Shown: piece after piece, positions 21,403 through 39,363 of the stretch
How the letters are laid out: every line of letters begins with the position of its first letter
Position numbering within the stretch: the first letter of the stretch is position 1
Source: an uncultured archaeon
Lineage (GTDB): Archaea > Iainarchaeota > Iainarchaeia > Iainarchaeales > VGJJ01
Direction of reading: 5' to 3'
Assembly: GCA_964524375.1 (NCBI GenBank)
Contig: CAZGES010000001.1
Coordinates: forward strand, 1-63,696
DNA: 63,696 nt
Notes under the pieces: generated by a model
Database searches by the model: none
What the model was told of the DNA's origin: nothing
The model's input: the letters and a program-made list of their open reading frames with translations, nothing else
Made by a program: the position numbers and the translations under genes

Positions 21403-21415
21403 ATTGACGTAAAAT
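21403..21415. promoter_or_regulatory. ATTGACGTAAAAT motif upstream of ispG
   Basis: Exact reverse complement of 15885-15897. Confidence 0.45.
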
Positions 21416-21420
21416 ACGCG

Positions 21421-21442
21421 AGGGAAAATGAAAATTTTCCCT
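21421..21442 (+). terminator. hairpin AGGGAAAAT-GAAA-ATTTTCCCT between dxs and ispG
   Basis: Perfect 9-bp stem 28 nt after the dxs stop. A role as terminator or attenuator is inferred only. Confidence 0.35.
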
Positions 21443-21492
21443 ATCCTTAAATTTCAGTCGGATGTAGAATGATTGTTGGAGAATGATAGTGC

Positions 21493-22761
21493 ATGCAAAA
21501 ACTTGAAACCCTCAATGGATTTGTGAAACGAAAAAGCGTTGAAGTTCGCGTGGGAAAAGTTGGCGTGGGGGGACACAACCCGGTGCGTGTTCAAAGCATG
21601 ACGAACACCGACACGGCGGACGTGAAGGGAACGGTTAAGCAAATCAAAGAACTCGCGGATGCGGGAAGTGAACTCGTACGATTCACGGTGGAGAAAGACG
21701 CCATGGCCGATGCGGTGCCGGCGATTCGAAAACAATTGCATGATGAGGGGTATGAAGACACGGCGTTGATTGGAGACTTTCACTATAACGGGCATTTGCT
21801 TTTGACGAAGTATCCTAAACTTGCGGAATCATTGGACAAATATCGCATCAACCCCGGAAATGTGGGCTTTGGAGAAAAACACGATGCTAATTTTGATTTG
21901 TTTGTAAAAACGGCTGTGGATTATGGCAAGCCCGTGCGTATTGGTGTGAACGGGGGAAGTCTCGACCAGCAGTTGCTCAAAAAACTCATTGATGATGATA
22001 ACAAGCTCCCCGCGAATGAACAGCTTGGCGCGAATCAAATCTTTTTAGAAGCGATGATTCAATCCGCTGTTTTGTCCACGCAGCGCGCGCTGGATTTAGG
22101 CATGCGAAAAGACCAAATTATTGTTTCCACTAAAATGAGCGGCGTGCAGGAAATGGTGTACTGTTATTCGAAGCTCGCGAAATTAATGGATCAACCCCTG
22201 CATTTGGGGTTAACTGAAGCGGGAATGGGGGATAAAGGAATTGTCGCCTCCACCGCCGCATTATCATTGCTTTTGAATCAAGGAATTGGCGACACGATTC
22301 GCGTGAGTTTGACACCGGAGCCCGGTTCATCGCGTACGCGTGAAGTGTATTTGTGCCAGCAGATTTTACAAAGCTTGGGACACCGATTCTTCTTGCCGCA
22401 AGTTACCGCGTGCCCGGGCTGCGGACGCACGACGAGTGACACATTCCAGCATTTGGCGAAGGAAGTGACGGAATATCTTGCTAAACAAATGCCCGTGTGG
22501 AAAAGTGAAGGGTATGCGGGTGTGGAGAACATGCACGTTGCGGTCATGGGATGCATTGTCAACGGTCCCGGCGAAGCGAAGGGTGCGAACATTGGCATCT
22601 CCCTTCCGGGAAGCGGAGAGAATCCCGCGGCGCCCGTGTTTGAGGATGGAAAGCTCGTGAAAACACTGCAAGGGCCCACGATGCGGGATGATTTTAAGAA
22701 AATGGTCCAAGCGTACGTGGAAAAGAAATACGGTAAAAAAGCCGTGCACGCTGTAGCGTAG
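21493..22761 (+). CDS. ispG: 4-hydroxy-3-methylbut-2-en-1-yl diphosphate synthase
   Basis: [28 protein letters not shown] and GCIVNGPGE cluster motifs. Confidence 0.9.
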
Positions 22762-24364: not shown

Positions 24365-24826
24365 CTACTGGCACTGTCCAACGACCGGCTGGATTCCATT
24401 GAATTTGAGTCCAGTCAAGTTGGCTGTGTTGTACGTGTATCCTAATGCTTTGCTGAATGTTTGTCCTGTGGCAACACCGCACACAATGGATGAATTTATC
24501 ACATTTGCAGTGGATCCTGCGCCGACGTTGACATCGGTGATGTCAATCGCAGAGCCGCCCCAATTAATGTCGGTTACTCGAATCGTTCCCGCGGTCAAGT
24601 TTTTGACAACGAGCGTTCCGGTAGAGGGTGTGACTTGCCATTCAATGACTGCAACAGGATTTGTTCCCGTCCAGTATGTTCGACTCGTGCTTTCGGAAAC
24701 TCCCGCACCTAATGAGGGGATTCCGCCCAACACGCCGACGACGACCAGCGCGATGACAATCACGATGGCTAAAATAATCAAATATTCCGTGGTCCCTTGA
24801 CCGCGATTTTTCTTCGTATGCATCAT
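24365..24826 (-). CDS. type IV pilin, Flp-like class III signal peptide (candidate major pilin)
   Basis: MMHTKKNRG|QGTTEYLIILAIVIVIALVVVGVL fits G/XXXXEY. Small (153 aa), Thr/Gly/Asn-rich, two Cys near the C-terminus. Own promoter, SD-like GGAGTGAGGAG and terminator. Confidence 0.8.
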   Translation of the reverse strand: MMHTKKNRGQGTTEYLIILAIVIVIALVVVGVLGGIPSLGAGVSESTSRTYWTGTNPVAVIEWQVTPSTGTLVVKNLTAGTIRVTDINWGGSAIDITDVNVGAGSTANVINSSIVCGVATGQTFSKALGYTYNTANLTGLKFNGIQPVVGQCQ

Positions 24827-24882: not shown

Positions 24883-24901
24883 GAATATAAATCTACGTCA
24901 A
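24883..24901 (-). promoter_or_regulatory. pilin promoter: TTGACGTA motif abutting TATA box ATTTATATTC
   Basis: Minus strand reads TTGACGTAG-ATTTATATTC about 60 nt upstream of the pilin ATG. The motif overlaps the stop of the upstream platform gene. Confidence 0.5.
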
Positions 24902-25932
24902 CCCGTTGCGAGGAGACTGCCCAAAACTTGCCGGGCGAGACCAAATGCAATCATGGAAACTATAAACATAATCGGGGTGTAGCGCAATCCCAGAAACGGT
25001 TTCCCTTCCCCAATAACCCCCATGAAAATTCCCGCGAGGATAGCATTTCCTAAAAGCAAAATGTACGCGACGCTTTCCAAGAAAACAGGAGTAATGGAAA
25101 GTTTTCCCCCGAGGAAACCCACCGTGCTGGACGAAGAGCCGGCGGTGAGGAAAGAACTCTGACCCTGTATGCGTGTGATGAGGGTGACAAATTCCACCGA
25201 CACGGCCATGAGTAAGGGGGTGGCCACGACCATGACGAATGCGACAAAAATCACGTAGGTTTTCACACTGCTTTCTAATTCTTTTTTCAAATCTTGCGTG
25301 CGGCGCAAATCCGCGGAGGAGCTTTCCAAAATCTGCGCAATTCTTCCTCCGCTGCGAACCGCTTGCAAAAAGAAACGCACGGTTTCGCTTAAACTTTTTG
25401 ATTTAATTCGATTGGAAATGCCGCTCAGCACGTTTCCAAAGGATTCGGTTCCTAATGCACGCGTGGTTACGGCGCGAATTTCGTCTGAAAGCGCGCCAAA
25501 TTCCGGGCGCGTGGAACTTTTGAATGCGGAAAAACTAGTCATTCCCGCGCGGATGTTTCCCGCGACGAGAAGCAAAAAGTCCGGCAAAACTTCTTCCACT
25601 TTCTTGCGGCGGTTCTCGATGCGGTAATACAGGATGAGGACTTGGAGAATGAGGCCGGTGATGAACCCCACGCTTGTACCTAAAATTCCGGCTGTTTCGC
25701 GCGTGAAAGAAATTCCCGTGCCGAGGGGAGTTACCCACGCGTTGAGCGATTCGGACGTGAAATAAAAAAACACTGCCCCCGCAATTGCGGCGAGAATGGA
25801 AAGGATGAGTGTTTTGGAGAGCCATGTCGCTCCATCGTCTAATGAGCCGGATTCGCGCAAGTATGCGTTGGCATTCTCCCTCATCCGTACGGGGAGAGCG
25901 CGTGAGAGGCGATAGAAAAGGGGATTAGGCAT
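24898..25932 (-). CDS. type IV filament platform protein, TadC-like (single T2SSF-type domain)
   Basis: The track ORF 24898-26247 overlaps the upstream gene. The ATG at 25932 (MPNPLFYRL) is 2 nt after the upstream stop. Polytopic with a helical cytoplasmic domain (FGALSDEIRAVTTRALGTESFGNVLSGISNRIKS). Confidence 0.75.
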   Translation of the reverse strand: MPNPLFYRLSRALPVRMRENANAYLRESGSLDDGATWLSKTLILSILAAIAGAVFFYFTSESLNAWVTPLGTGISFTRETAGILGTSVGFITGLILQVLILYYRIENRRKKVEEVLPDFLLLVAGNIRAGMTSFSAFKSSTRPEFGALSDEIRAVTTRALGTESFGNVLSGISNRIKSKSLSETVRFFLQAVRSGGRIAQILESSSADLRRTQDLKKELESSVKTYVIFVAFVMVVATPLLMAVSVEFVTLITRIQGQSSFLTAGSSSSTVGFLGGKLSITPVFLESVAYILLLGNAILAGIFMGVIGEGKPFLGLRYTPIMFIVSMIAFGLARQVLGSLLATG

Positions 25933-25934
25933 AC

Positions 25935-26816
25935 TTAGTACCCCTTCGGCGTGCGCGAGCCGATGAAACCAATGAGGACAATTTGAACCGCAAACGCCGC
26001 TCCAATGGTGAGGAGAATCGTATCCTGCGAAATGGACGTGCCCCCGATGGAGGAGAGAATGATCATGAACGTAATTCCAATGGTTGGGAGGGCAGCGGCC
26101 ATGAGCAAATACATGAGAATCCACATGTTTAATTCTGCCGCGTAATTCTTGATGGCGCGCGACTGAAACTCGGTGAGGGTTTCCATAATCGCAGTAAGTG
26201 CCACGCTGATGGGTGCGCCCGTGCGAATCGTAGTTACAAGCTGCCAAATGGTTTTGCGCAAAAACTCGGATTGCGTGCGCAACGCCAACCGTTCAAGTGC
26301 CGCTCCTTCGTTTACTCCCGCGTTAATTTCCTGAATTACTTTTTCAAATTCTTCACTAATGACACCGTAATTGCTTTGCGCGATATTGGACATGGCATCA
26401 AACAAACTCACGCCGGAATTGACTTGGACTTGCATGCTTCGCAGCGCGAACATTAAACCTTGGTCGATTCCCGTGGCATTTTGTTGCGCGAGGATGCGCG
26501 GGTAGTAAATGTGAAGGAGAAACGCACTCAACCCTAGTCCTAACCCGGTAACAAAACCAAAACGCAGGCCTTGAATGATGTCACCGCTCGTGACAAAGGA
26601 GAGTGCGCCGATGAGGAGGAAGGAGAGGATGGAATACAGAAACGCCGAGAGAAGGGCCCCCGCCACATAGGATGGAGCGTCGGTGGAAATGTGGGCGAGT
26701 TTGAGAGTGTTATTCAACGTGGGGAAAAAGCGCGAAACATGGGTGGCAGCCCCCGTGAAACGTGAGGGGAGGTTGTTGATTTGGTCCAGGGTCAGGAGCA
26801 TGAATCGCACGCGCAT
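25935..26816 (-). CDS. type IV filament platform protein, TadB-like (single T2SSF-type domain)
   Basis: Polytopic. Cytoplasmic helical domain QVQVNSGVSLFDAMSNIAQSNYGVISEEFEKVIQEINAGVNEGAALERLA resembles T2SSF/TadB. Confidence 0.75.
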   Translation of the reverse strand: MRVRFMLLTLDQINNLPSRFTGAATHVSRFFPTLNNTLKLAHISTDAPSYVAGALLSAFLYSILSFLLIGALSFVTSGDIIQGLRFGFVTGLGLGLSAFLLHIYYPRILAQQNATGIDQGLMFALRSMQVQVNSGVSLFDAMSNIAQSNYGVISEEFEKVIQEINAGVNEGAALERLALRTQSEFLRKTIWQLVTTIRTGAPISVALTAIMETLTEFQSRAIKNYAAELNMWILMYLLMAAALPTIGITFMIILSSIGGTSISQDTILLTIGAAFAVQIVLIGFIGSRTPKGY

Positions 26817-26827
26817 GAAGAATCATC

Positions 26828-28648
26828 TCACAATGAGAAAGGGTCCTTGTCCTTGAATGCCGCGTCGTAAATCGTGGCGGGATTCGCATAAAATGCGTGC
26901 ATGATTTTTCCGACTTGCTCCATGGAGGAGCAATCGTGTTTGAGCATCCAGTCCAAAATAGTTATTCGGTTCAACACTTCTTCTTTGATTTCGCGCTCGG
27001 TCATTCCGGTGTGCATGTTTAATTTTTGAATGAGGCGAATGGGTTCGTTCATTTTTTCGAACGTGTCCCCGCGCGCGGACCAGCGGAAAATGTTTGAAAC
27101 ATTCGTCTGTTCATTGGTGGTGCCGGATTCAACTTCGGCAATTTCATACGTTCGACGCGCGTTTCCTCTTCTATCGCGATACTGAACAAGAATCAAATCA
27201 ATCGCCTCTACTTCCAACGCAGGAATGGAAATGGGCGGTTCAACTAAACGGCGCAATACTTGGTGTGCAGAGTCGGCGTGAATCGTCGCATACACGGAAT
27301 GTCCGGTGTGCATCGCTTCAAACAGCGCTTCCGCTTCTTGTCGCGTGCGCATTTCTCCAACGATCAAACGGTCGGGTCGCATTCGCAGGGAAGACAAGAG
27401 CAAATCTAACATTGTCACGCCCCCCGCGCCTTCAGGATTAGGATTTCTCGTTGTGAGCGGGACCCAGTTCCATTGCATGTAATCCGGTAAACTAATTTCA
27501 CGCACGTCTTCAATCGTAATGACACGCTGATGGGAGGGGATGAATGTGCATAACGCATTCAATGCACTCGTCTTTCCCGATGCAGTAGAACCGGCAACGA
27601 GCATGGATAATTCATACTGCATCGCCAACCACAACCACGCGCCCATTTCCGAATTCATCGTGTGCATCTTCCCAATGAAGTCCACCACCGACCAGGGTTT
27701 TCGTGCGAAGCGACGAATGGTTAACGTGTTTCCAAAAGATGAAATAGGAAACAATGTGGCGTTGACACGGTCTCCTGAAAGAAGGTGTGCGTCGAGAATA
27801 GGATGAAGGTTCGTAATTTCACGACCATTCTTTCGAGCAATCTGCGCGGACAAATTTTGAATGTGATCCTCGTTGGGCATAGCCAAATTGGTTTGCAGCC
27901 ATCCATAATTGCGATGGTAAATGGTGACCGCGGTTTTAGACGAATTAATGGCAATTTCTTCCAAATTATTATCGGCCATGAGCAATTCTAATTCACCCAA
28001 ACCATACAGGCGGTGGAGCATTTGTCCGGTTAGCGAGTCCATAATCTCAGGAGAGAGTCCGCGGAAGACTTGCACGAGTTGTTTCTTCGTCGCCTCTGCA
28101 AATTGGAGTTTCAAACCCTTGGCTTGCTCCACATCACTCAAGTCAATGGCTTCAATGGAAATGCTTGATGCAATTTTGTCGCGCATCTCATCCAATAGTA
28201 TTTCGGTGTAGGGTCCAAATGTTTGAACGTACAACGAGTAAAACGGATGACCATCATCGGCGAGCATAATTATTTTCACATCCGCCACCACATTGTCAGC
28301 GGAGAACGTGTACTGCTCCATGACTTCACCATTGGGCGGAGTGAGAAGTTTGTCGCTCAACTTTTGCAGCAATGCGACTTTGGGTCCTTGCAGCAAGGAC
28401 GCGGGATAGGAAAGTTTGACAATGCCTCTATTTTCCAAGAGCTTTAACACTTGCTCCATGTCCTGCGACTTCCACCCCGTGTATTTGGCGAGCTCATCCA
28501 GCCCCATTTCGGTTTTGGTTCCCAACACGCGCATGGCGTCATCAATCATCAACTGCACGCCCGTCGAGATGGAAAAGGGGCGGGAACGCGGGTCCACCAG
28601 CGGAGCGGGCTTGTCTCCGGAAAGGGAAACGGGAAGAATCTCGGGCAT
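26828..28648 (-). CDS. type IV filament assembly ATPase (TadA/FlaI/GspE superfamily)
   Basis: Walker A AGSTASGKTS, Asp box ITIEDVREI, Walker B RPDRLIVGEMR, His box HTGHSVYATIHA. ATG at 28648 with a TATA box 25 nt upstream. The track start at 28801 lies inside a tRNA. Confidence 0.85.
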   Translation of the reverse strand: MPEILPVSLSGDKPAPLVDPRSRPFSISTGVQLMIDDAMRVLGTKTEMGLDELAKYTGWKSQDMEQVLKLLENRGIVKLSYPASLLQGPKVALLQKLSDKLLTPPNGEVMEQYTFSADNVVADVKIIMLADDGHPFYSLYVQTFGPYTEILLDEMRDKIASSISIEAIDLSDVEQAKGLKLQFAEATKKQLVQVFRGLSPEIMDSLTGQMLHRLYGLGELELLMADNNLEEIAINSSKTAVTIYHRNYGWLQTNLAMPNEDHIQNLSAQIARKNGREITNLHPILDAHLLSGDRVNATLFPISSFGNTLTIRRFARKPWSVVDFIGKMHTMNSEMGAWLWLAMQYELSMLVAGSTASGKTSALNALCTFIPSHQRVITIEDVREISLPDYMQWNWVPLTTRNPNPEGAGGVTMLDLLLSSLRMRPDRLIVGEMRTRQEAEALFEAMHTGHSVYATIHADSAHQVLRRLVEPPISIPALEVEAIDLILVQYRDRRGNARRTYEIAEVESGTTNEQTNVSNIFRWSARGDTFEKMNEPIRLIQKLNMHTGMTEREIKEEVLNRITILDWMLKHDCSSMEQVGKIMHAFYANPATIYDAAFKDKDPFSL

Positions 28649-28669
28649 GCTCGAAACAGCGAAAGGGGC

Positions 28670-28677
28670 TTTATTAT
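28670..28677 (-). promoter_or_regulatory. TATA box (ATAATAAA) for the ATPase gene
   Basis: Centred ~25 nt upstream of the ATG at 28648. Confidence 0.5.
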
Positions 28678-28749
28678 CGTATTCCCTGCCAATTCTACCA
28701 GGGGCAATAACCGGGGTTAAAAACCAATTTGAAGAGGATTTTTGTATAC

Positions 28750-28832
28750 GCGGAGTTGGCAGAGCGGTCAAATGCGCTGGTCTTGAAAACCAGAGCCTCA
28801 CGGCTACGGGAGTTCAAATCTCTCACTCCGCG
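28750..28832 (+). tRNA. tRNA-Ser (anticodon UGA)
   Basis: Acceptor GCGGAGT/ACTCCGC, anticodon arm CTGGT-CTTGAAA-ACCAG, long variable arm, T loop TTCAAAT, discriminator G. TTAAAAA box 30 nt upstream. Confidence 0.93.
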
Positions 28833-28901
28833 CTCGCTTCCGATCGAGCAGTCCGGTATAGAGGGATGACAAAAGTCATCCCTCGGCTGGACGTTTTTTT
28901 T
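28833..28901 (+). terminator. tRNA 3' flank module with hairpin GAGGGATGAC-AAAA-GTCATCCCTC, GGCTG and T8 run
   Basis: GTCCGGTATAGAGGGATGA.. closely matches the tRNA-Leu flank GTTCGGTATGGAGGGATGA... The oligo-T at 28894-28901 fits an archaeal terminator. Confidence 0.6.
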
Positions 28902-28929: not shown

Positions 28930-31488
28930 TTATTGCGGAGGCGTGGCAGTTGTTTCAGGGGTTGCTGTGCCCGTGCTTCCAATTCCACCACCGATGTCAA
29001 CGGGAATGGGTGCATCGTAGTAGATTCCGCCCAAACCCGTGTACGCGCGAATGGCGTTGAGGAAGGATTGAATCTCCGAGACTTCCATTCCGGCTTCTAA
29101 ACGAATGGTTTTCGTCGTTGTTCCATCCGTGATGGTGATGGTTTCAATGCTGCCATCCGCACAGCCCGGGCAGCCGAACGTCTCGTCCAATTTTTGGAAC
29201 GCGGGCCAATCTAAATTCTCCACGACATCATCATACTGCGAGTACGCGGGATTTTCATAGATGTTCGTGTATCCGGGGTCTCCTCCCGTGAAATTGGTTT
29301 GCTTAATTTTTGTTTTGGTCAATTCTACTTCTTGAAAACCGCACGCATCAGCGCAAAAGACGCCTTCCACGCGCGCAGTTATTTTGAGATTTTTGGGAAT
29401 GGTAACGAAATCAATGGTTTTGATTTCGTGCAAATCACTTAACGCATTGGCTTTGATTCGTTTATCGGAGATGGTGTATAACACATCTTCAATGAACAGG
29501 GAACGCTTGACTTGGTATTGCCAGTCGTAATAGTAGCCGGACTTCAAGTCAATTTCCTCATCTACATGTGTAATGCGTCCGCGCTCTTTGAAGCCGTTTT
29601 CTAGTGTAACATTATACACGAAAGCGCCTTGAAAAACGGGTTCACCGTACGCGGGCCAATCTCTCCAGTCGCCAATTCCATTTTGAATATTATTTTTTTG
29701 CTCGTCTGAAATCTCGTGCAAATAAATGGGGAGCACGAGGAGATTTTTCTCCGCATCAAACAAGAACGCGTGATGGTCTTGCAGCGCGAATGAATCTGTT
29801 CCTCTATCGCCGATGATGAGCGAGTGCATCTGCTGGGGGTTCTCCACATCTGTAACATCAAAGATGGCGAGCTTCATTCCCAAATAGTAGGCGAAGTCAC
29901 CCGACTTGGATGTTTCGGTGTCTTTTCCGATTCCCACGATGTGAGTGGCATCAATGGGGTGCAAATAATCCGAGTAGCCGGGGATTTTGAGTTTCCCTAA
30001 CACTTTAGGATTTGTCGCATCGCTCAAATCCAACACAAACAAGGGGTCGATTTGTCTAAATGTGACTAAATATGCGCGGTCGCCCATGAAGCGAGCGGAA
30101 TAAATTCTCTCGCCGGGAGCGAGGTCTTCCAACGACCCAACAAGTTCCATGTCCTCGTTAAACGTGTACACGTTGTTCATCGACTTCGTGTTTTCATTCG
30201 TGAGGGGGTTCCATTGCTCATCTATTGTTGTGGCGATTCGAAAAGTGTTTTTGTGTTCATCCATTGAAAATTGGTTGAGGACGCGGCCTAATGCCGTTCC
30301 CTTTCCTTCATACTCGACGCGGCCATTGTTCAACGAAAATTTGTGAATAATGGTTTTAGTTGTATTATCCTGCTCGTTCGGCATGGCAGTGTCGGTCGTG
30401 GCAGGAGGAGAAGCGTCATCGACTTCACGCACACCCGCTAAAGGCATGATGGGTCCGCCGTAATAATTCCATTGCGTGTGGGCGAGATACAAATTGTTTT
30501 CAGACGCATACGTGGTTTCAGCGCTTCCCACGATCGTTTCTTTGTTGAACGAAAGCGTGTCTACGTTTAACGAACCAATGGTCACAAAACTTTGCGCGTA
30601 AATGGGGCGCAAATATCCAATATCTTGCGGCGCGGCGAGGGGCTTCTCCACACCATCTTCAAAATACGGGGGAATGATGGACGCGTCATCGTCTTTGGTT
30701 TCGGCGTTCAACATGTAATATTCCGGATATGCTTGCATGACGAAGTATACTTGGTTGCCAATCATGCGCGAGGAAACGTAGTTTCCCGTGAAGGCGAGTT
30801 CTTTTTCGAGCGTGGGATTTTCCTTATTTGAAATATCATACACGTTCACGATTGATTTTGAATAATTCCAGTACGGAGGATAAATGTAACTTCCTCCCCA
30901 GCCGGGTGCGGCCATCTTCGTATCGTACGCGGGGTATTCGCGCTGCTCATACGAGTTTCCAAACAAAATGAGTTTGTTTCCGTTCACAAACATTTGAGAA
31001 GGAGTAATGTTATCCAAGTTGAGTGTCTTCACGACGCGCGCCTCATCGGCGGGATAGGCGAGAGTGATGACAAGTTTGTTTTTGTAAAACGCATAAATGT
31101 ATTTTCCATCCGTTTTCACGATGTCGGCTTCATCCACGCCTTCGACTTGAACATTCGTGTTCGAGTAGGCGGGGCCGGACGGGTTCACGCTAGCGCCTCC
31201 TGTTCCACTATCCGATTTGGATTCTCCATTCACAGCGGCAGTGGGGGCCATTACATTGTCGCGCACCGCATACTGATTGTTTCCGCTTTGCTGGGCTTGC
31301 GTGAATGCGGCGACAATTTCGGCTTCGCTTGAAAAGTGAGGAATGATTTTGGGTCCGAGCGTGTCATTGGGAGTGAAAATAGGATTGGTGTTTGCAGGCA
31401 AATTCGTTTGCGCGAGCGCAAAAATAAATGCTATTCCTAGAATAGCGAGGCCGATTCCGGCGATGGGTATGTTTCCTTTCGAACTCAT
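28930..31488 (-). CDS. secreted beta-propeller domain protein (COG4880/Beta_propel-like) with Cys-containing C-terminal domain
   Basis: N-terminal anchor IPIAGIGLAILGIAFIFALA. VQVEGVDEADIVKTDGKYIY and RFMGDRAYLVTFRQIDPLFVLDLSD..IPGYSDYLHP match that family as I recall it. Confidence 0.8.
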   Translation of the reverse strand: MSSKGNIPIAGIGLAILGIAFIFALAQTNLPANTNPIFTPNDTLGPKIIPHFSSEAEIVAAFTQAQQSGNNQYAVRDNVMAPTAAVNGESKSDSGTGGASVNPSGPAYSNTNVQVEGVDEADIVKTDGKYIYAFYKNKLVITLAYPADEARVVKTLNLDNITPSQMFVNGNKLILFGNSYEQREYPAYDTKMAAPGWGGSYIYPPYWNYSKSIVNVYDISNKENPTLEKELAFTGNYVSSRMIGNQVYFVMQAYPEYYMLNAETKDDDASIIPPYFEDGVEKPLAAPQDIGYLRPIYAQSFVTIGSLNVDTLSFNKETIVGSAETTYASENNLYLAHTQWNYYGGPIMPLAGVREVDDASPPATTDTAMPNEQDNTTKTIIHKFSLNNGRVEYEGKGTALGRVLNQFSMDEHKNTFRIATTIDEQWNPLTNENTKSMNNVYTFNEDMELVGSLEDLAPGERIYSARFMGDRAYLVTFRQIDPLFVLDLSDATNPKVLGKLKIPGYSDYLHPIDATHIVGIGKDTETSKSGDFAYYLGMKLAIFDVTDVENPQQMHSLIIGDRGTDSFALQDHHAFLFDAEKNLLVLPIYLHEISDEQKNNIQNGIGDWRDWPAYGEPVFQGAFVYNVTLENGFKERGRITHVDEEIDLKSGYYYDWQYQVKRSLFIEDVLYTISDKRIKANALSDLHEIKTIDFVTIPKNLKITARVEGVFCADACGFQEVELTKTKIKQTNFTGGDPGYTNIYENPAYSQYDDVVENLDWPAFQKLDETFGCPGCADGSIETITITDGTTTKTIRLEAGMEVSEIQSFLNAIRAYTGLGGIYYDAPIPVDIGGGIGSTGTATPETTATPPQ

Positions 31489-31919: not shown

Positions 31920-32855
31920 CTACCGGCCGTACGTCCAAATCGTATTCGTGTCGGCGTTAAAGTCTATTCCGCGGAGGGTCGTGTTGAAATCGTACCCCGC
32001 GAACGTGCCATTGATGTCATTGGGGAGCGTGTACGCGATGGAATAATTCCACGTCACGTTCGGCGCGCCAAAAATGATGGTGCCAAGAGGAGTGGTGGAT
32101 ACTGCGGGATTTTCGCTCACGGTTCCGAGACCGATGACTTTGCTGTAGGTGATTCCATCAACAGAATAGGTTGCATTGAATGAAAAAGAGGAATGAGTGA
32201 TGAGCGTGCCGCTGTAGGAATGATTGTGGTCGTTGTTCGTGTCGGTGTAATTGAAGGAATAATCAGTGAAGGTGATGTCGCCAAAGCAGCATGCGCCCGT
32301 TGTGATGTTGACAGACTCATAGGGCACCTCGGAAAAAATATTCACGTCAATGCGCCGCGGGTAATAATTTGTATCAGTGGGGAAAACTCTAAATCGATTC
32401 ACATCAAAACCCTCGCGCCAGCGAAGAAGGTGGTTGGTTCGCCCCCAAAAATTTCCGTCTGAAATGGATTGGTTCAAATCCAAAAAAATACTCGCGTTTG
32501 AATCGCGGGCGAGTGTGGAGAGATTAGTTTGATACCGCAGCAAGTTTGTTTGCGTGGAAAGGGCGTTGGGCATTTTTCCTTTGATGTGAAAAGTAGCCGT
32601 GTCGCGGTTTTGGTCAATGGAAATGGTTTGACCGGTGAGCGCGTTGAAATCAAGTGCAATGTCGCGCAGTAATCGTGCGGGCGCAGCCGTCTGATGCGTT
32701 TGCATGGAATCGAGTTGCATCGTTTGCAAATGTGAATGCTGTAGCTGTGCGGTGATAATGAGCATGAGGGCTAATACGAATGTGGAAAAACTTAGCACGA
32801 AACCGCGTGGTGCGCTCGTTTTCGTTGCGCGTTGAGCTCTCGTTACACGGACCAT
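31920..32855 (-). CDS. pilin-like protein (class III signal peptide, 311 aa)
   Basis: N-terminus KTSAPRG|FVLSFSTFVLALMLIITA. Asn/Thr-rich mature part. Overlaps the upstream gene by 13 nt. Confidence 0.6.
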   Translation of the reverse strand: MVRVTRAQRATKTSAPRGFVLSFSTFVLALMLIITAQLQHSHLQTMQLDSMQTHQTAAPARLLRDIALDFNALTGQTISIDQNRDTATFHIKGKMPNALSTQTNLLRYQTNLSTLARDSNASIFLDLNQSISDGNFWGRTNHLLRWREGFDVNRFRVFPTDTNYYPRRIDVNIFSEVPYESVNITTGACCFGDITFTDYSFNYTDTNNDHNHSYSGTLITHSSFSFNATYSVDGITYSKVIGLGTVSENPAVSTTPLGTIIFGAPNVTWNYSIAYTLPNDINGTFAGYDFNTTLRGIDFNADTNTIWTYGR

Positions 32856-33283
32856 GTGGCCACCTCCACGACATACATGTTGGCATCGGGGGGTGACACG
32901 ACTATGAAACTGTGGCGTACGCGTTCAACTTGGGGAGCGAAGGTGGTGCAACCGCTTTTCGTCACAATAAAAGCAGGGAGATTTTGGTCAGGAGATGGAA
33001 AAACGGCGACACTCCCGCAGATGGAAGTGGGCCACCCATTGATGTACGAGCGAACTTCTGTGGTGTTATTCAAAATGACCGCGCGCGAGAGAGCGGGGCT
33101 TTGTTCAAATGTGAGTGCAGCATTCTCTGCGAAGAGGCGCAGGATTAACTCTTGGCGGACATCGCTCCCTTTGCTCGTTGACGCGTCGAAAGCGAGGGAG
33201 ATGATGACGAATAGCACCGTGAGTGCGAGCAATGCGTCGATGGCGATGACAAATCCTCGGTTTGTTTTTTTGTTGAGCGTCAT
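32843..33283 (-). CDS. minor pilin-like protein (146 aa)
   Basis: ATG at 33283, 1 nt after the upstream stop. MTLNKKTNRG|FVIAIDALLALTVLFVIISLAF. Confidence 0.65.
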   Translation of the reverse strand: MTLNKKTNRGFVIAIDALLALTVLFVIISLAFDASTSKGSDVRQELILRLFAENAALTFEQSPALSRAVILNNTTEVRSYINGWPTSICGSVAVFPSPDQNLPAFIVTKSGCTTFAPQVERVRHSFIVVSPPDANMYVVEVATWSV

Positions 33284-33284: not shown

Positions 33285-33812
33285 TTAGACACCGTAGACC
33301 TGCACCGTGGCAATGGCGGGGCGTGATTGATAGACAACGGGAAGCGTGACCACACTCACCGTGTTTTTGTTGATGGGCGCCGTGCCGGCGCGCGTGAGAA
33401 TCGTCTTGTTTTCGTCTGAAATGGTCACGTAAAAATTCAAGTCTTCCAAACCCATGCGCGAAACCAGTTGGGTGTAATTGGTCGCGTTCCAATCTAGAAA
33501 CGCTGCCCATTTAGCCGGGGAAATGGCTGTGCCATTGGGAGAAACACCCACGCTCAACACGTCGCTGCGGTTAGAATTCGTGTCCCAATACGTGGGGTTG
33601 CCGGGGCTTGTGAAAAGAATAGCGGCCGTGCGCGCGGTAGTAAGGCTCAGGGTATAGGCATTGTGCTCTTCCGCGGCTTGATTTTGCAATTGTTGGTTCA
33701 CTGCTGAAATGAGGGTGGCGGCGAAAAGGAAAATGACAATGGAGAGCAGCGCATCCGAGGAGTATAGTTGTCCTCTGCTTCGCGTGTGCGTTTGAGAATG
33801 TCTCTGTTTCAT
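33285..33812 (-). CDS. minor pilin-like protein (175 aa)
   Basis: THTRSRG|QLYSSDALLSIVIFLFAATLISAV. Start overlaps the upstream stop (ATGA). Confidence 0.65.
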   Translation of the reverse strand: MKQRHSQTHTRSRGQLYSSDALLSIVIFLFAATLISAVNQQLQNQAAEEHNAYTLSLTTARTAAILFTSPGNPTYWDTNSNRSDVLSVGVSPNGTAISPAKWAAFLDWNATNYTQLVSRMGLEDLNFYVTISDENKTILTRAGTAPINKNTVSVVTLPVVYQSRPAIATVQVYGV

Positions 33813-34231
33813 GGTGATACTTCCCGAATGTCGAGGCGGCCATTCACGTCGCGCTGAATGGTGAAAAAATTTCCATCGTGTAAATTTGAAAATGAAAACT
33901 CTGTAAAAGGAATTTTGACGGAAGAATAACTGCGCGCGCTGCGCGCTTCAATGAGGCCCGAGCCAAGAATAATGGTCTGTGTTTCTATTGCAGCGGGAAT
34001 GAAAAATTTTATTTTGCTTCCAATGGGAGCGCGGCTCATTTCCATGATGCTGCTGGCGACGATTTGGGCGGAGCGCTCGGTAGATTGCTGCGCTCGAATG
34101 GAATCCACCACAATTAATTGCTGCGCAAAAATGGAAAAAGAAACAGATAATAAAATTAGCAGCAAGGGTAAAATGACCATAATTTCTACGGTGGCTTGTC
34201 CGCGCGCGTGAGTGTGTGTCATGAGCCTCAT
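33809..34231 (-). CDS. TadE-like minor pilin (140 aa)
   Basis: HARG|QATVEIMVILPLLLILLSV resembles the TadE/TadF N-terminal motif (G-x-x-x-VE-h-h-h-h-h-P). Confidence 0.65.
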   Translation of the reverse strand: MRLMTHTHARGQATVEIMVILPLLLILLSVSFSIFAQQLIVVDSIRAQQSTERSAQIVASSIMEMSRAPIGSKIKFFIPAAIETQTIILGSGLIEARSARSYSSVKIPFTEFSFSNLHDGNFFTIQRDVNGRLDIREVSP

Positions 34232-34235: not shown

Positions 34236-36494
34236 CTACGTCTCGACTTGGTCGAATGTGATATTCATGTCGGTAAACCCCTGAATCATTTCCACGTACA
34301 AGCGCGAAGGGTTGGGGATGTTGACGAGCGCACCGTCAAAACGATAGCCGGTGGGAAAAACGACAGTGGAAAGGAGGTCGAGGCTCGTCAAGTATGCTGC
34401 GGCAGGATTGGCGGTGTAATTGGGTGCGCCGGCAGGCAGTCCAACCGTGTTTGAAGTGGGGTACCAGATGCGCACGTTGTTCAAGCGAATGGCACTAAAA
34501 CCTAGGGCAGCATACCACGAATTGTCGGCATTCGCGTCATCGATGACGTGCAAGTACACGTTTCGGTCTCCTGAACCTAATGTAAAATTATGCAGCGAGA
34601 ATTTGTTGATGTCTAATTCTCCATCGTTAGGAGACACGCGCGAGAAGGCAAACGGAATAATGTTCAAGTCATTCACTCCGTATCTGAATGAGTTGTTCGG
34701 CCGCGCGGATGGACTATTGGAGAGTCCACTGTTGTTATCCGCTTCATCAAAAAACATGATGGAAAAATAGTAAGTTTGTCCCACGTTCAAATCGGTAACA
34801 AGTTGATTTCCATCCGACCCCGCGGCGGGGAAAATAATTTGATTGAGGTCTAATCCAGTGGGGTCGCTGTATGCGTAAGGTATCGCGTTGGAGAATTGGG
34901 CGAGTGTGGTAATGGGGGTGGTGGCGTAGCGGATGTCCACCGCTGAAACGGTGCCGGATTGATTATCATCTCCGGGAAAGACCCACTCGAGGAAAGTGGA
35001 TTCGGGATATGGTCCTGATTCGGCGGTAAAACTAGTGGGTGACCCAGGGGGAGTCGTGTCGGTGGCGCAGCCCGCTCCAATTGAATCGCCCGTGTATGAT
35101 GAGCCGTCGGAAAATGTCACAACTGGTTGATAAATGGCATTATTTCCCGAAATGGGATTGGAGAAGGAGATGCTATTATTGTGAAGAATAGACTGCGCAG
35201 GAATGTTGGTGTCCGTGATATCCATCACGTTTCCATCGGCCGCATTTCCGGAGAAAACCTGTCCATTATTGAGTACGACGCTCGTAATAGTGGAATGGTT
35301 CACGTCGCAGTCCCACCAGTGGCGGATGGCAATCGTGGAAAGGGTAACGGGTTTGGAACTCGAGTTGTGCAAAAGTATTCCCGAGATGGATGCTTCCGTT
35401 CCAACGCCCACTTCTCCATCCCATTCCCATCTGAAATAGTTTGTCATCGTATCCACGTTGGCCGTGAGGGGAATGACTTGGCTGTTGGCACCGGTGAAGT
35501 CAGTTATGGAGAGTGACCCTGCATACGCTCCTGCCGTGGTGTTGGCGGGCACGGTGCTATTCACATCCACATACTGGCACGAGGACGCATCAAGTTGAGC
35601 GATGGTAGTCATGGGAGCAACCCACGACCCGGGGGGTTGTGCAGAGGGAGTAAATGAAATGGACTTGATGGGAGTCGAACCCGCGTTGCAGAGCTGCAGC
35701 GTCTGCGAATTAAAGTCCGCGCCGAGCGTGTGATAGGTGACAGAAGAAGGAATGACTGTTAGAAGTGTTTGAGACGGAGAAAAAACTTCCACGTTGATAG
35801 GAATGGAAAATGACTCCACATTCGAACCTATTGTGCTTTGCGCGTGGAGAAAACCCACGTAGTTTCCGAGCGAAGAAGATGTCGCGTTGAAATCCAACGT
35901 GAGTGTGTCGCGTTGAAATTTTGGAATAGATGAGGTGGATTTAGAAACGCTTGCATCAACGAGCGTGTGCGACCAGGAAAGATTGTAAACCATGTTGGCC
36001 GCTCTCGCACTCAAATTAGTAAAGGTAAGAGTGGTTGACTCGTTGGAGTCGCGCGACATGGGAATGTAAATGCTGCCGGTGTCGCTTACTACGGTAACCA
36101 AGCTCACGTTCACCCGGTCCGCGTATGAAACGAGACGGAGGCGCAGCAATCCTACTTCGGTGGGCACGGTTCCCTGCAAGCGGGTTAAACTATCGCGCGC
36201 AATATCCGTGTCGTAGACGCGGAGGATGATGCTGTTGTTCTCATACCGCGAATTGATGGCGTCAATTCCTTTGGGAAATGGCAAAATAATATCACGCGTC
36301 TTCCCGGGACCGGAAAGATAGACTTGGTTGATTTCCCGTACTAATTGTTCAAGCGAAGCGGACGCAATTTCAATGGATTGCTGTCTCTCCACTTCCGCGA
36401 CGTGGGTGGTGGTGAAACTCACGAGCGCGGCTAAAATGGTGAGTGAAATGACCAATACCATGAGCAGTTCAACGCTGGATTGCCCTCGACGCAT
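34236..36494 (-). CDS. giant pilin-like surface protein, paralog 2 (752 aa)
   Basis: MRRG|QSSVELLMVLVISLTILAALVSF. Collinear with paralog 1 (LQLCNAGSTPIKSISFTPS, RHWWDCD, PGDDNQSGT, RIWYPT). The ATG at 36494 lies 25 nt after its own TATA box. Confidence 0.7.
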   Translation of the reverse strand: MRRGQSSVELLMVLVISLTILAALVSFTTTHVAEVERQQSIEIASASLEQLVREINQVYLSGPGKTRDIILPFPKGIDAINSRYENNSIILRVYDTDIARDSLTRLQGTVPTEVGLLRLRLVSYADRVNVSLVTVVSDTGSIYIPMSRDSNESTTLTFTNLSARAANMVYNLSWSHTLVDASVSKSTSSIPKFQRDTLTLDFNATSSSLGNYVGFLHAQSTIGSNVESFSIPINVEVFSPSQTLLTVIPSSVTYHTLGADFNSQTLQLCNAGSTPIKSISFTPSAQPPGSWVAPMTTIAQLDASSCQYVDVNSTVPANTTAGAYAGSLSITDFTGANSQVIPLTANVDTMTNYFRWEWDGEVGVGTEASISGILLHNSSSKPVTLSTIAIRHWWDCDVNHSTITSVVLNNGQVFSGNAADGNVMDITDTNIPAQSILHNNSISFSNPISGNNAIYQPVVTFSDGSSYTGDSIGAGCATDTTPPGSPTSFTAESGPYPESTFLEWVFPGDDNQSGTVSAVDIRYATTPITTLAQFSNAIPYAYSDPTGLDLNQIIFPAAGSDGNQLVTDLNVGQTYYFSIMFFDEADNNSGLSNSPSARPNNSFRYGVNDLNIIPFAFSRVSPNDGELDINKFSLHNFTLGSGDRNVYLHVIDDANADNSWYAALGFSAIRLNNVRIWYPTSNTVGLPAGAPNYTANPAAAYLTSLDLLSTVVFPTGYRFDGALVNIPNPSRLYVEMIQGFTDMNITFDQVET

Positions 36495-36514
36495 GCACGG
36501 AAAAGGGGCCATTT

Positions 36515-36522
36515 CTTTATAT
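36515..36522 (-). promoter_or_regulatory. TATA box (ATATAAAG) for giant pilin paralog 2
   Basis: Centred ~25 nt upstream of the ATG at 36494. Confidence 0.5.
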
Positions 36523-36578
36523 GCGCGCGCGCTCCTTCGGTGGAAAAAAGCAATAACTGTGCGGCGAAAAAATGGCTG

Positions 36579-38864
36579 CTAGAGGGGAGTAAAGCCGGGT
36601 TCCGTTCCTTCGGTGTTATCAATCACCAGATTGAAATCGGAAATTCCCGCGAGCACGTCAATGTAAACGTGGTTGGGGCGCAATACTGAAAGCAGCGACC
36701 CCCCATAAGGGTACGTGGATCCAAATAGATTGGTGTCGCGCAGGTTTAGGCCATTGGTAAAAGGGTAATTATAATTTTGGTCAAACTGCGCACTATTTGG
36801 TTGCCATGAAAGTCCCCCCGTCGGATACCAGATGCGCGCGCGCTTGAGAATGAAATTGTTGAGGTCCAAGAGTATCATCCATCCATTATCGGTGTTGGTA
36901 TCATTCACGATGCGGATGGCAATTTCGTCGTACGCGTTTCCAGGAGAAAATGAGAGTGCGTTCAAATCAAATTGGCTTAATGCCGCTTGTCCTTGAGTAA
37001 CAGCCCCTGAACCCGGAGAAAAATTGACCGCGTTAAAATCGCCCCGCGAATAGGAGAAGCGGTTCCACGCCCGATTCATGTCGGAGTTGGAAAGACTGGC
37101 ATAATTTCCATTTTCATCATACGCTTTCGCGGCGAAATAAAAATCCTTTCCGATGTTGATGTCAGTGAAGACTGCGGAGAACGCTCCCATATAATCCGGG
37201 GGGATTCCTGCTCCTCCGACTGGAATAATGGTTCGCGCGGCGTTGAATTCAGCATTTGTGGTGATGTCGGTGGGGCTGTATTTGTATAATATTCCTAACG
37301 GCGTTCCCGTGTAATTATCATCCCCCGGGAGAGTGAAGCGCAGTTCAATGGATTGCGCGTCCGGACCTTGGAGGGCGACTAAATCCGTGATAGGGGCTGG
37401 AGGAATAATGTCGTCCGGACACGTGTAACTGCCGAACGTGGAACTAGTGTATTGTGTACCATCGGAAAAATCAACGACCGCGTAAAAGGGCTCATTTTCA
37501 TCATTGATTGTGTTGCTGAACTCGAGCAGGTTGTCCGAGTAGCTTGTGAGGACGGGAATGTTGAAGTCTGACACGTCCACCGTATTTCCATCGGCTGCAT
37601 ATCCGGAGAAGCGAGAGTTATTGTCCACGCGGAATTGGGTCCAATAGGAATGAGCGGAGTCGCAGTTCCACCAATCGTGGAGCGTGACATGGGTGATGCG
37701 CACGGGTTTTCGTCCCGTGTTCGTGAGTGCAAAATCAAGAATAGTATTCACACTGCGCACCGCCGGGGACCAGTCCCACGTGAATGCGCTGCTCATTCCG
37801 AGAACAGAAATCGTGGTGGGGATGGAAATAGAATTCGCTCCCGTGTAATCGGAAACGGCGAGTGAACCATAATGCGTTCCCAGCGTGTCGGTGGGCACAC
37901 TCACATTCACATCAACGGCTTGGCATGATTGCGCGGCCAGCGAATCAATAGTTGCAAACGGACTAATCCACGTGCCCGGCGTGCCCGAGGAAGGAGTAAT
38001 TGAAATCGTTTTAATTTCAGTCGCGCCCACGTTGCACAATTGAATCGTTGTTGAATTAGTGTCTATTCCAAAGGTGCTTAACGAAATGCTTGTTGGAAAA
38101 GCAACGAGCTGCGCAGTGCCTCCGACGTGAACATTGGCTTGAAGGGGCAGGACGAGTGTCTGCACCGAACTGGGATAGGTGGCAATGATGGTAGCATCAC
38201 CCGTGTACGTGCCCACTGCACTGCTATTGGAATTAAAATTCACATCAAACGTGAACGTGCCACCCCCATACAAGTCGCCCGAACTCGGACTCACAGCTAT
38301 GTTCACGTCGGAGTGCGACCAGGAAGTGGAAATGGAAATAGCCGCCTGCGCCGAGGCAGCATCATCCAAGAGGAGATTGGTGAGTGTGATGCGCGTGCTG
38401 GACGTGGAACTGCGCGAGAGTGTTGATAGAACGGTGGAAGGACTCATGGTGAAAGAAACTTCTCCAATGAGAACAAAACCGTCAAAGGAGCGGATGCGAA
38501 TGTTCTGCAAACCCGAAGTGGTGGGAAGAGACCCTGTCAAAATGGGAATGGTCTCCCCAAAAACCTGCGTGTCAAAAACATTTAATGCCATTCCATGATT
38601 GGAGACAAGCGTGCCTGTGGATGAAACACCCTCCGGCCACGCGAGTTGAATATAGCGCGACGCGCCCGGGCCTTGAGCATACACTTCATTGGACGCATTG
38701 ACAATCGTCTGAATGGCCAATTCAGCCGTCTTAATGGCGCGCTGTTTCTGAACATTATTCACTTGCTCCGCGGTAAAACTAATGAGCACGGTCAAGATGA
38801 CTAACGCCACGGCGAGAATGGTCATCAATTCAATCGTCGTCTGCGCCCGCAGGGTTCTGCCCAC
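36579..38864 (-). CDS. giant pilin-like surface protein, paralog 1 (about 761 aa)
   Basis: (M)GRTLRA|QTTIELMTILAVALVILTVLISF. I prefer the GTG at 38864, 22 nt after ATCAAAATT. The track ATG at 38987 adds 41 codons across sequence that is a non-coding tRNA promoter in the other copy. Confidence 0.65.
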   Translation of the reverse strand: MGRTLRAQTTIELMTILAVALVILTVLISFTAEQVNNVQKQRAIKTAELAIQTIVNASNEVYAQGPGASRYIQLAWPEGVSSTGTLVSNHGMALNVFDTQVFGETIPILTGSLPTTSGLQNIRIRSFDGFVLIGEVSFTMSPSTVLSTLSRSSTSSTRITLTNLLLDDAASAQAAISISTSWSHSDVNIAVSPSSGDLYGGGTFTFDVNFNSNSSAVGTYTGDATIIATYPSSVQTLVLPLQANVHVGGTAQLVAFPTSISLSTFGIDTNSTTIQLCNVGATEIKTISITPSSGTPGTWISPFATIDSLAAQSCQAVDVNVSVPTDTLGTHYGSLAVSDYTGANSISIPTTISVLGMSSAFTWDWSPAVRSVNTILDFALTNTGRKPVRITHVTLHDWWNCDSAHSYWTQFRVDNNSRFSGYAADGNTVDVSDFNIPVLTSYSDNLLEFSNTINDENEPFYAVVDFSDGTQYTSSTFGSYTCPDDIIPPAPITDLVALQGPDAQSIELRFTLPGDDNYTGTPLGILYKYSPTDITTNAEFNAARTIIPVGGAGIPPDYMGAFSAVFTDINIGKDFYFAAKAYDENGNYASLSNSDMNRAWNRFSYSRGDFNAVNFSPGSGAVTQGQAALSQFDLNALSFSPGNAYDEIAIRIVNDTNTDNGWMILLDLNNFILKRARIWYPTGGLSWQPNSAQFDQNYNYPFTNGLNLRDTNLFGSTYPYGGSLLSVLRPNHVYIDVLAGISDFNLVIDNTEGTEPGFTPL

Positions 38865-38918
38865 CCGATTCCGTACGGGCGCTCCGGAATTTTGATGAAC
38901 CTTTTGGAAAAAAGTTCC
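38844..38918 (-). promoter_or_regulatory. tRNA-type promoter/leader module, copy B, heading the giant pilin gene
   Basis: GGAACTTTTTTCCAAAAGGTTC-ATCAAAAT-TCCGGAGCGCCCGTACGGAATCGGGTGGGCAGAACCCTGCGGGCG aligns with 2846-2906. Confidence 0.55.
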
Positions 38919-39158
38919 GCGCGTCGGCGTTAGGGTCGCCTGCTGCGGCAGAAACTCAGACGAAAACGGTACACTCTTACTTGACATGGCAAAGGCACCA
39001 ATTCTGGGCTTTTAACGGTTGCCCCGCAGCCTTTTTACCCGCAAAAACCCTGGGGAAAAACCCTTTGGGTGACTGCTAGTGCAGTGTTTTATAAAACGCT
39101 TGAAGCAAAAATGGTCTAGAAGACTAGTTTAACTGTTGGGAAAGGGTTCCAGACCTTC

Positions 39159-39190
39159 AAACTTTTTAGGAAAAAGTTTGATCAAAAACC
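39159..39190 (+). promoter_or_regulatory. promoter module of tRNA-Ser(GGA): palindrome AAACTTTTT-AGG-AAAAAGTTT + GATCAAAAA
   Basis: Perfect 9-bp palindrome followed by a TATA-like box ~35 nt upstream of the tRNA 5' end. Same architecture as 2877-2905, 38890-38917 and 57406-57435. Confidence 0.5.
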
Positions 39191-39219
39191 GGTTTTGCTG
39201 AGCCTTTTCTCAAAAGTTT

Positions 39220-39303
39220 GCAGCGATGGCGGAGTGGTCTAACGCGCCGGTCTGGAAAGCCGGTCTCCTCACGGAGGCACGAGTTCAAATCTCGTTCGCT
39301 GCG
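39220..39303 (+). tRNA. tRNA-Ser (anticodon GGA)
   Basis: Acceptor GCAGCGA/TCGCTGC, anticodon arm CCGGT-CTGGAAA-GCCGG, long variable arm, T arm ACGAG-TTCAAAT-CTCGT, discriminator G. Confidence 0.93.
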
Positions 39304-39363
39304 TGCCCGCATTATCGGGCAGCGCTAAAGGACGTTGAGGATTCTGCGAATCCTCAAGCGGCC
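39304..39363 (+). repeat. tRNA 3' flank module (TGCCCGCATTATC.. + hairpin TTGAGGATT-CTGCG-AATCCTCAA + GCGGCC)
   Basis: Starts TGCCC-N2-ATTATC like the Ser-CGA and Leu flanks. 9-bp hairpin at 39335-39357. Confidence 0.5.

Follow-up and report, generated by a model that had tools for sequence, protein, structure and literature searches.

Two giant modular pilin-like proteins encoded in a conserved type IV pilus locus of Iainarchaeota are candidate tip adhesins

In Streptococcus sanguinis, the modular pilin PilB carries a von Willebrand factor A (vWA) module and PilC a concanavalin A (ConA)-like lectin module (PMC8179133, PMC9934059), and a survey has identified more than 1,200 modular pilins, the largest of 860 residues (PMC8179133). 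The beta-repeat and beta-sandwich module of CofB has been cited as protein-binding, and GspK, which lacks the glutamate at mature position five (Glu+5), caps the pseudopilus (both in PMC8179133, the latter as a summary). In archaea, pilus loci of the Methanococcus type encode two large DUF2341 proteins that are predicted tip adhesins (PMC4858521). The 'System 1' or subsystem 4A loci of methanogens and DPANN archaea combine a split platform protein with many pilins and with adhesin-like or galactose-binding class III proteins (bioRxiv 10.64898/2026.04.22.720090), and the pilus loci of DPANN archaea are full of unrecognised 'diverse pilins' that are mostly 'dark matter' (PMC6393860). The DNA analysed here is a stretch of 63,696 nt from an uncultured archaeon of Iainarchaeota (DPANN), contig CAZGES010000001.1 of assembly GCA_964524375.1, and is referred to as the window. 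It contains a type IV pilus locus with two adjacent genes for giant proteins with pilin-type N-termini, giantA and giantB, which are the subject of this study.

The giants form an unnamed family and belong to a kind already known, the modular or large adhesin-like pilins of archaeal type IV pilus loci. They are very probably class III-type pilin-like proteins. The evidence moderately favours the interpretation that they are modular minor pilins, which present adhesive modules on or near the tip of the pilus; judged by analogy and genomic context, a tip adhesin is the most plausible reading. The two genes are:

36579-38987, minus strand: giantB, B-type giant pilin-like protein; longest open reading frame (ORF) of 802 aa, with the cleavage motif RTLRA/QTTIEL (the slash marks the cleavage site) at residues 44-55
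34236-36494, minus strand: giantA, A-type giant pilin-like protein; 752 aa from ATG 36494, beginning MRRG/QSSVELL

Approximately 35 full-length homologs recovered by database searches were aligned, and their N-terminal consensus is M-x-R-[GA]/Q-[ST]-[ST]-[VI]-E-L-[LM], followed by a further ~20 hydrophobic positions. In the N-terminal alignment of the giants (A4, with Q5, E9 and L10 invariant), Gln+1 and Glu+5 do not vary. The cleavage motif reads RG/QSSVELLMVLVISL in giantA and RA/QTTIELMTILAVAL in giantB. Together with the preceding residues, MRRG/QSSVELLMVLVISLTILAALVSF and RTLRA/QTTIELMTILAVALVILTVLISF have the short basic leader and the hydrophobic stretch of a class III signal, which spans about 25 residues here. 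Pilin-type N-termini had been placed at these positions in a preliminary description of this DNA, and the conservation of the motif in 35 homologs bears this out. Homologs that carry the conserved N-terminus are only 32-57% identical to giantA, and about half of those with a complete N-terminus begin three to four residues ahead of the cleavage site.

The structure of giantA was predicted using AlphaFold2 (AF2) with the 35-sequence alignment; the residue numbers refer to the 752-aa product starting at ATG 36494. The model has a mean predicted local distance difference test (pLDDT) score of 84.4. A helix is predicted at residues 7-60, and eight short strands follow at residues 66-137, which fits the alpha-1 helix and beta domain of a pilin. 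The rest of the model is all-beta, and its single domains are confident:

36315-36494, minus strand: giantA leader, cleavage motif and predicted 54-residue alpha-1 helix with Glu+5 (residues 1-60), based on sequence and AF2
36081-36314, minus strand: giantA small beta head (residues 61-138), homologous together with the helix to the small pilin-like protein m1
35445-36080, minus strand: two immunoglobulin (Ig)-like sandwiches of giantA (residues 139-350), with weak HYDIN/VesB-like and NEW3-like matches and holding C269/C306
35043-35444, minus strand: giantA domain D3 (residues 351-484), Trp-rich, with invariant F.W.W, W..CD, F.D and C
34704-35042, minus strand: giantA fibronectin type III (FN3) domain (residues 485-597), with PGDDN...YYF..DE.gN
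34239-34703, minus strand: giantA C-terminal beta-sandwich or jelly-roll-like domain (residues 598-752) with long strands, the least conserved domain

The first 120 residues of the giants align with the family of m1, encoded immediately downstream of giantA, with an hhalign probability of 97.3% and an E-value of 1.8e-11. The match spans 113 columns, and the homology therefore reaches well past the hydrophobic helix. The assignment of a pilin module is based on this homology, on the likeness of the motif to that of the major pilin of the locus, and on the canonical design of a helix followed by a beta head. The module appears to be separable, as in modular pilins, given the homology to m1, the discrete domains of the AF2 model and the C-terminal modules that are swapped in relatives.

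The two giants are collinear paralogs, as had been proposed. BLASTP aligns them in a single collinear alignment of approximately 765 positions with 34% identity and 55% positives (E 7e-139). All the shared blocks quoted in the preliminary description occur in both proteins: VY..GPG, QLCN.G.T.IK.IS.TPS, WW[DN]CD, VV[TD]FSDG, PGDDN..GT, YF....[FY]DE..N...LSNS and RIWYPT. The conserved cysteine pairs described there were also found: each giant has four cysteines, and the whole family keeps all of them, as the pairs C269/C306 and C396/C476 (752-aa numbering). The divergence of the paralogs was measured as per-domain identity instead of the ratio of nonsynonymous to synonymous substitutions, because synonymous sites are saturated at 34% amino acid identity. 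A neighbour-joining tree splits into an A clade and a B clade, both with deep members; the tandem duplication of the giants is therefore old, and it has been retained in every locus seen.

When 1.84 billion representative proteins were searched with a profile, the giant family came to about 25 clusters at 50% identity, and a search with an 18-sequence alignment as the query identified six loci among the GTDB species genomes. In the data searched, the family was found only in metagenome-assembled genomes of Iainarchaeota/Diapherotrites, where the sources label its members 'hypothetical protein'; a survey of the distribution had been suggested in the preliminary description. The giants are rich in Ser, Thr and Asn, and poor in Lys. 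GiantA has 17 N-glycosylation sequons and giantB eight, which is not above the approximately 11-12 expected from the composition.

The AF2 model agrees with the earlier proposal of Ig-like and FN3 domains stacked on a pilin helix. Of the 'FN3/CARDB-like' segments, the FN3 part stands, as a PF00041-type domain at residues ~480-595, whereas CARDB/NEW3-like Ig domains are indicated by sub-threshold matches only (PF10633, E 0.0026; PF22544, E 9e-5). In the profile search, about 9,600 proteins match only profile positions ~477-590, often in multiple copies, and those sampled are Pfam fn3 (PF00041); the FN3 assignment is solid. Scans of both giants against Pfam and NCBIfam returned only the sub-threshold Ig-like matches and no family, and a search of PDB sequences with a whole giant returned only the FN3 domain of chitinase A1 (E 0.036). 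The giants thus match no named family in Pfam, NCBIfam or PDB, as the preliminary description had stated. Neither a DUF2341 domain nor a PilY1 beta-propeller was detected in either giant (Pfam up to E 1; PDB sequence search). A Foldseek search with the full giantA model returned HYDIN-like ciliary proteins, receptor phosphatases and alpha-2-macroglobulins at template modelling (TM) scores below 0.25; these were rejected as homologs, and the similarity was read as a string of Ig-like domains. The fold comparison proposed in the preliminary description recovered the expected Ig-like string, as generic multi-Ig/FN3 chains, but gave no confident neighbour for the C-terminal domain. Domain D3 is kept in relatives with an exchanged C-terminus. 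No relative of D3 was found in an alignment-based database search, which missed even members of the giant family, probably because of a word-index limit.

The giants evolve quickly, and their ends are exchangeable. In tblastn comparisons of the window locus proteins with nine related loci (L001-L009), the identity to orthologs is 72-85% for the ATPase, 56-78% for the platform genes, 50-74% for the beta-propeller protein, 27-71% for the small pilins m1-m4 and 34-52% for the giants, which are among the fastest-evolving proteins of the locus. The most conserved part of the giants is alpha-1N (within-type identities of 0.76 and 0.69). Identity is lowest in the C-terminal domain, at 0.33 overall and 0.25 between giantA and giantB of the window. 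Distant relatives match the giants only over residues 1 to ~470-520 and continue with other modules: a protein of 1,532 aa (P0142) has Laminin_G_3 (ConA-like lectin) domains in two copies, together with Big_7 and a weak match to H-lectin, and two others (P0136 and P0176) carry Big_7/DUF7035. Such a pattern, in which a conserved carrier bears a fast-evolving end that can be exchanged, is expected of an adhesin or recognition protein.

The giant genes open an 11-gene locus, which the preliminary description had missed. The order of the genes, all on one strand, is giantB-giantA-m1-m2-m3-m4-propeller-ATPase-TadC1-TadC2-major pilin, so that the locus adds four pilin-like genes, a propeller gene, a pilus ATPase, a split platform and a major pilin to the giants:

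33809-34231, minus strand: m1, small pilin-like protein, 140 aa, HARG/QATVEIM, Glu+5; homologous to the N-terminal module of the giants
33285-33812, minus strand: m2, pilin-like protein, 175 aa, RSRG/QLYSSDALL, Asp+6; group motif RG/QLYS[ST]D
32843-33283, minus strand: m3, pilin-like protein, ~146 aa from MTLNKKTNRG/FVIAIDALL, Asp+6; group motif [RK]G/FVIA[IV]D
31920-32855, minus strand: m4, the largest small pilin-like protein, 311 aa, APRG/FVLSFSTF, no acidic residue near the N-terminus; group motif [RK]G/FVLSF
28930-31488, minus strand: secreted or anchored beta-propeller protein, 852 aa, with an N-terminal hydrophobic segment; PF09826, E 5.5e-168
26828-28801, minus strand: type IV pilus/secretion ATPase (T2SSE, PF00437), identified by Pfam
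24898-26816, minus strand: split platform protein, two T2SSF/TadC-like genes (25935-26816 and ~24898-25950), identified by Pfam
24365-24826, minus strand: putative major pilin, 153 aa, 144 aa after cleavage, KNRG/QGTTEYLIILAIVIVIALVVVGVLGG; PF04021 (Class_IIIsignal) at 24.4 bits, above the cut-off

All seven pilin-like proteins of the locus have the motif [RK][GA]/[QF] followed by a hydrophobic helix. The ATPase and the two T2SSF genes lie 5-9 kb downstream of the giants on the same strand. With one T2SSE, two T2SSF and seven class III proteins, the locus has the composition by which System 1 (Epd-like)/4A loci are defined (bioRxiv 10.64898/2026.04.22.720090). The full order and strand are kept in L006 and L008, and in part in the seven other loci. 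The cassette of giantB, giantA, m1-m4 and usually the propeller gene is common to L002-L005, L007 and L009. In L001, the complete 1.05-Mb genome of Ca. Iainarchaeum (CP064981), the cassette is followed by two copies of the major pilin, the platform genes and the ATPase, these on the opposite strand. In most loci, a HIT-family gene is found upstream.

The mature N-terminus of the major pilin, RG/QGTTEY, has Glu+5 and resembles the motif of the giants. The window, both CP064981 copies (L001 18431-19392) and L006 (16512-16769) have the same first 26 mature residues (QGTTEYLIILAIVIVIALVVVGVLGG), although the remainder of the protein is only 55-71% identical. A search of PDB sequences with the major pilin returned no match. 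Typical archaeal pilins had been described as five to ten times smaller than the giants, and the 144 aa of the mature major pilin agree with the lower figure, 'five times'.

The N-termini of m1-m4 are group-specific and conserved; the motif of the m1 group is RG/QATVE, and m1 has a weak match to the TadE motif (E 0.005). The graded N-terminal chemistry of m1-m4 suggests a fixed order of assembly, with m4 as a GspK-like cap. Because GspK without Glu+5 caps the pseudopilus, m4 may, by analogy, be a better candidate for the top-most subunit than the giants. The propeller gene directly follows m4, is kept there in most related loci, and the arrangement recalls fimU-pilVWX-pilY1. The propeller protein was considered as a relative of PilY1 and rejected, as it has no sequence match to it.

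Compared with the described systems, the giants are most similar in design to PilB and PilC. These, too, combine a class III signal with a small pilin module that bears a grafted module, are minor pilins with a predicted location at the tip, and occur as two different modular pilins per system; the ConA-like lectin module of PilC has counterparts in relatives of the giants. The giants differ from them in being archaeal, in having Gln+1 where the bacterial proteins have a methylated Phe/Met context, in carrying five appended domains instead of one, and in lacking sequence similarity to the bacterial proteins, whose survey was not extended to archaeal class III proteins. The type IVb minor pilins CofB and TcpB are likewise large and combine a pilin module with a beta-repeat and a C-terminal beta-sandwich. 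However, they come from another domain of life and have no detectable sequence or fold match to the giants, the locus of which contains two paralogs and four small pilins.

Archaeal pilus loci with large adhesins share with the present locus the beta-rich adhesin-like proteins next to minor pilins and an ATPase, the split platform (in System 1/4A) and the recurring arrangement of two large proteins. In contrast to the large proteins of those loci, the giants lack DUF2341 and any other common Pfam domain, and the pilin module lies demonstrably within the giants. GspK of the type II secretion system (T2SS) and TadG of the Tad system are enlarged pilin-like subunits that, together with small minor pilins, prime or cap the fibre. 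Neither has sequence similarity to the giants, and GspK, which has no Glu+5, contains an inserted alpha domain; here, it is the 311-aa m4 and not the giants that lacks the acidic residue. PilY1/PilC of type IVa pili is a large adhesin whose gene accompanies those of four minor pilins, as the gene for the 852-aa PF09826 propeller follows m1-m4. However, PilY1 lacks a class III signal and is no pilin, and its sequence is matched neither by the giants nor by the propeller protein. The novelty of the giants was overrated in the preliminary description, since large class III adhesin-like proteins in archaeal loci and bacterial modular pilins had already been described.

The following mechanism is proposed. 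A class III (prepilin) peptidase would cut the leader of each giant at the membrane, and the ATPase and split TadC-like platform of the locus would pull the hydrophobic helix out of the membrane. The helix may then pack together with the helices of m1-m4 and of the 144-aa major pilin. Because of their bulk, the giants would be low-abundance subunits at or near the tip, where the stalk of five beta-domains could project the fast-evolving C-terminal domain to bind a ligand on a surface, glycan or partner cell. While the motifs, their conservation, the homology to m1, the linkage to pilus genes, the module swapping and the fast evolution of the giants are shown, and the fold is predicted, we infer the cleavage of the giants, their incorporation into the filament, their location at the tip and their role in adhesion.

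Several observations weigh against this interpretation. The match of giantB to PF04021 is sub-threshold (E 0.57, 10.6 bits; cut-off 23.7), giantA has no match to this Pfam model, and an NCBIfam scan of both giants matched no pilin model; the relative P0176 scores 21.5 bits against PF04021, and models of the short class III signal are known to miss divergent archaeal pilins (PMC4858521). The giants have no sequence match to solved pilins in PDB, and a search with the N-terminal 140 residues returned nothing. A Pfam scan detected no prepilin peptidase gene among the approximately 50 ORFs of the window, nor was one found in the flanks of L001-L003. GiantB may have an atypically long leader of 47 aa. 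Glu+5 is kept in both giants. In bacterial systems, this residue is typical of subunits that lie below another subunit and not at the very tip. The geometry between the domains of giantA is uncertain (predicted TM score, pTM, of 0.46), and the giants contain no recognisable binding domain. The C-terminal domain modelled alone is predicted with confidence (pLDDT 89.5, pTM 0.85). However, Foldseek found no confident lectin or adhesin neighbour (best E 0.011 in PDB and 0.0016 in BFVD, TM scores of at most 0.48); its weak top matches are galectin, ConA-like, GH16 and viral jelly-roll sandwiches, with E 0.01 or worse for the galectin/ConA-like neighbours.

It is possible, if rather unlikely, that the giants are processed and use the pilus machinery but are displayed on a very short pseudopilus or at the membrane, as an envelope adhesin or binding layer. 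The four small pilins could form a short stalk, the retained Glu+5 would be in keeping with such an arrangement, and there are archaeal precedents for class III signals on surface proteins outside filaments, such as the Sulfolobus bindosome (PMC4858521; bioRxiv 10.64898/2026.04.22.720090). However, the presence of a small, highly conserved major pilin in the same locus implies a real filament, and the combination of a pilin module, a stalk and a variable end matches that of filament-presented modular pilins (PMC8179133).

It is doubtful, although conceivable, that giantA and giantB are more than rare subunits of the tip and form an obligate heteromer, which would give rise to a specialised, domain-decorated fibre or to a 'grappling' tip that recognises and holds a partner cell. 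The C-terminal sandwich and the Trp-rich D3 would then set the specificity, and the long TPTRG leader of one B sub-clade (35-51 aa) would be a regulatory pro-segment of a kind not described for archaeal pilins.

There is little to suggest that the giants are not pilins at all, but S-layer-like or generic envelope proteins that adjoin the pilus genes and have an uncleaved signal anchor or a Sec signal. The composition of the giants is like that of many archaeal envelope proteins, and the sub-threshold scores against pilin models and the Pfam scan and flank searches for a peptidase gene would be in agreement with this. A plain anchor would, however, not be expected to retain R[GA]/Q..[VI]E close to the start, with constant spacing, in proteins that are only 32-57% identical to giantA, and both the homology of the N-terminal 120 residues to the adjacent m1 and the strict synteny with the pilus machinery argue for pilin-like proteins. 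The giants match no S-layer or other envelope family in Pfam or NCBIfam, and they have a class III N-terminus and a soluble C-terminal beta domain with no C-terminal anchor.

The weakest alternative, the unusually thick filament considered in the preliminary description, in which the giants would be the major or co-major subunits of a domain-decorated fibre made of both paralogs, is consistent with Glu+5 and the conserved alpha-1N (76% and 69% within types), as in polymerising subunits, with the retention of the giant pair in every locus examined and with the seemingly separate promoters of the two genes, but is highly improbable, given that the locus encodes its own 144-aa major pilin with an invariant mature N-terminus next to the ATPase and platform genes, that approximately 690 extra residues per subunit would be hard to pack at the helical spacing of a type IV pilus, that bulky modules clash within the filament body in modelling of PilB (PMC8179133), and that the giants evolve faster than most components of the locus, which is unusual for a core structural subunit.

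The attachment of DPANN archaea to surfaces and partner cells is largely unexplained, and the locus is a clean, conserved and testable candidate for it, with a complete pilus machine, four chemically graded small pilins and a pair of giant modular pilins that evolve fast. Should the giants form the adhesive end of a pilus, specificity would reside in the variable C-terminal domains, which would be the targets for probing in Iainarchaeota enrichments. The family would extend the bacterial 'modular pilin' concept to archaea, near the largest recorded size. The understanding of type IV filaments as such is unchanged; the value of the locus is that of a candidate DPANN attachment apparatus and not of a new principle.

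The ORF coordinates given for the giants in the preliminary description are exact, and the start of giantA was corrected. The longest giantA ORF is 34236-36512 on the minus strand (758 aa). Based on the conserved spacing of the promoter and the starts of homologs, the real start is most likely ATG 36494 (MRRG/QSSVELL, 752 aa) and not 36512, and the mRNA is most likely leaderless. A conserved A/T box lies 20-21 nt 5' of the giant ATG in four or five related loci, and a separate promoter for each giant gene is plausible from these elements:

36515-36522, minus strand: ATATAAAG box, putative TATA box of a leaderless mRNA, 20 nt 5' of ATG 36494
39009-39015, minus strand: TTAAAAG box inside the conserved GTTAAAAGCCC, putative giantB promoter, 21 nt 5' of ATG 38987

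The ATATAAAG box 5' of giantA has identical spacing in L002, L006 and L007. The GTTAAAAGCCC box of giantB is kept in the same three loci and has the degenerate form TTTTAAGCCCC in L001. In giantB, a 5' extension of in-frame codons (38865-38987) separates the promoter-proximal ATG 38987 from the class III cleavage motif, and an alternative start at GTG 38864 would yield MGRTLRA/Q in a protein of 761 aa. A sub-clade of B-type giants (window, L006, P0020, P0023, P0024, P0026 and P0027) has such an extension, with 35-51 extra codons and a common TPTRG motif; in the other loci, the equivalent giantB ATG directly begins M-D-K-G/Q. The extension may be an exceptionally long archaeal pilin leader of 47 aa, or an untranslated insertion with the internal GTG 38864 start. 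A palindrome, AACyTTTTnGGAAAAAGTT, recurs between giantB and a divergent tRNA-Ser(gga) gene (39219-39304, plus strand). Its copies are at 38898-38916, inside the giantB extension, and at 39160-39178, with weaker ones at 39046-39064, 39130-39148 and 39201-39219. A promoter of 'tRNA type' reported in the preliminary description could not be verified; the palindrome between giantB and tRNA-Ser may be what was meant.

A gene for tRNA-Ser(tga) (28750-28833, plus strand) is placed in antisense orientation between the propeller gene and that of the ATPase, whose longest ORF it overlaps. The true start of the ATPase is probably downstream of this tRNA gene, and the 11-gene locus is probably split into at least two transcription units. 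A second pair of T2SSE (447 aa) and T2SSF (551 aa) genes is located at the end of the window (60637-63527, plus strand), and the organism therefore has at least two type IV filament machineries. The window also contains a complete methylerythritol phosphate (MEP) pathway cluster at 13908-22761, with genes for an IspE-like GHMP kinase, IspH/LytB, Dxr, IspD, NUDIX, IspF, Dxs and IspG; a literature check on MEP-pathway genes in Diapherotrites yielded nothing relevant. Because archaea normally produce isoprenoid precursors via mevalonate, the cluster looks like a bacterial-type acquisition.

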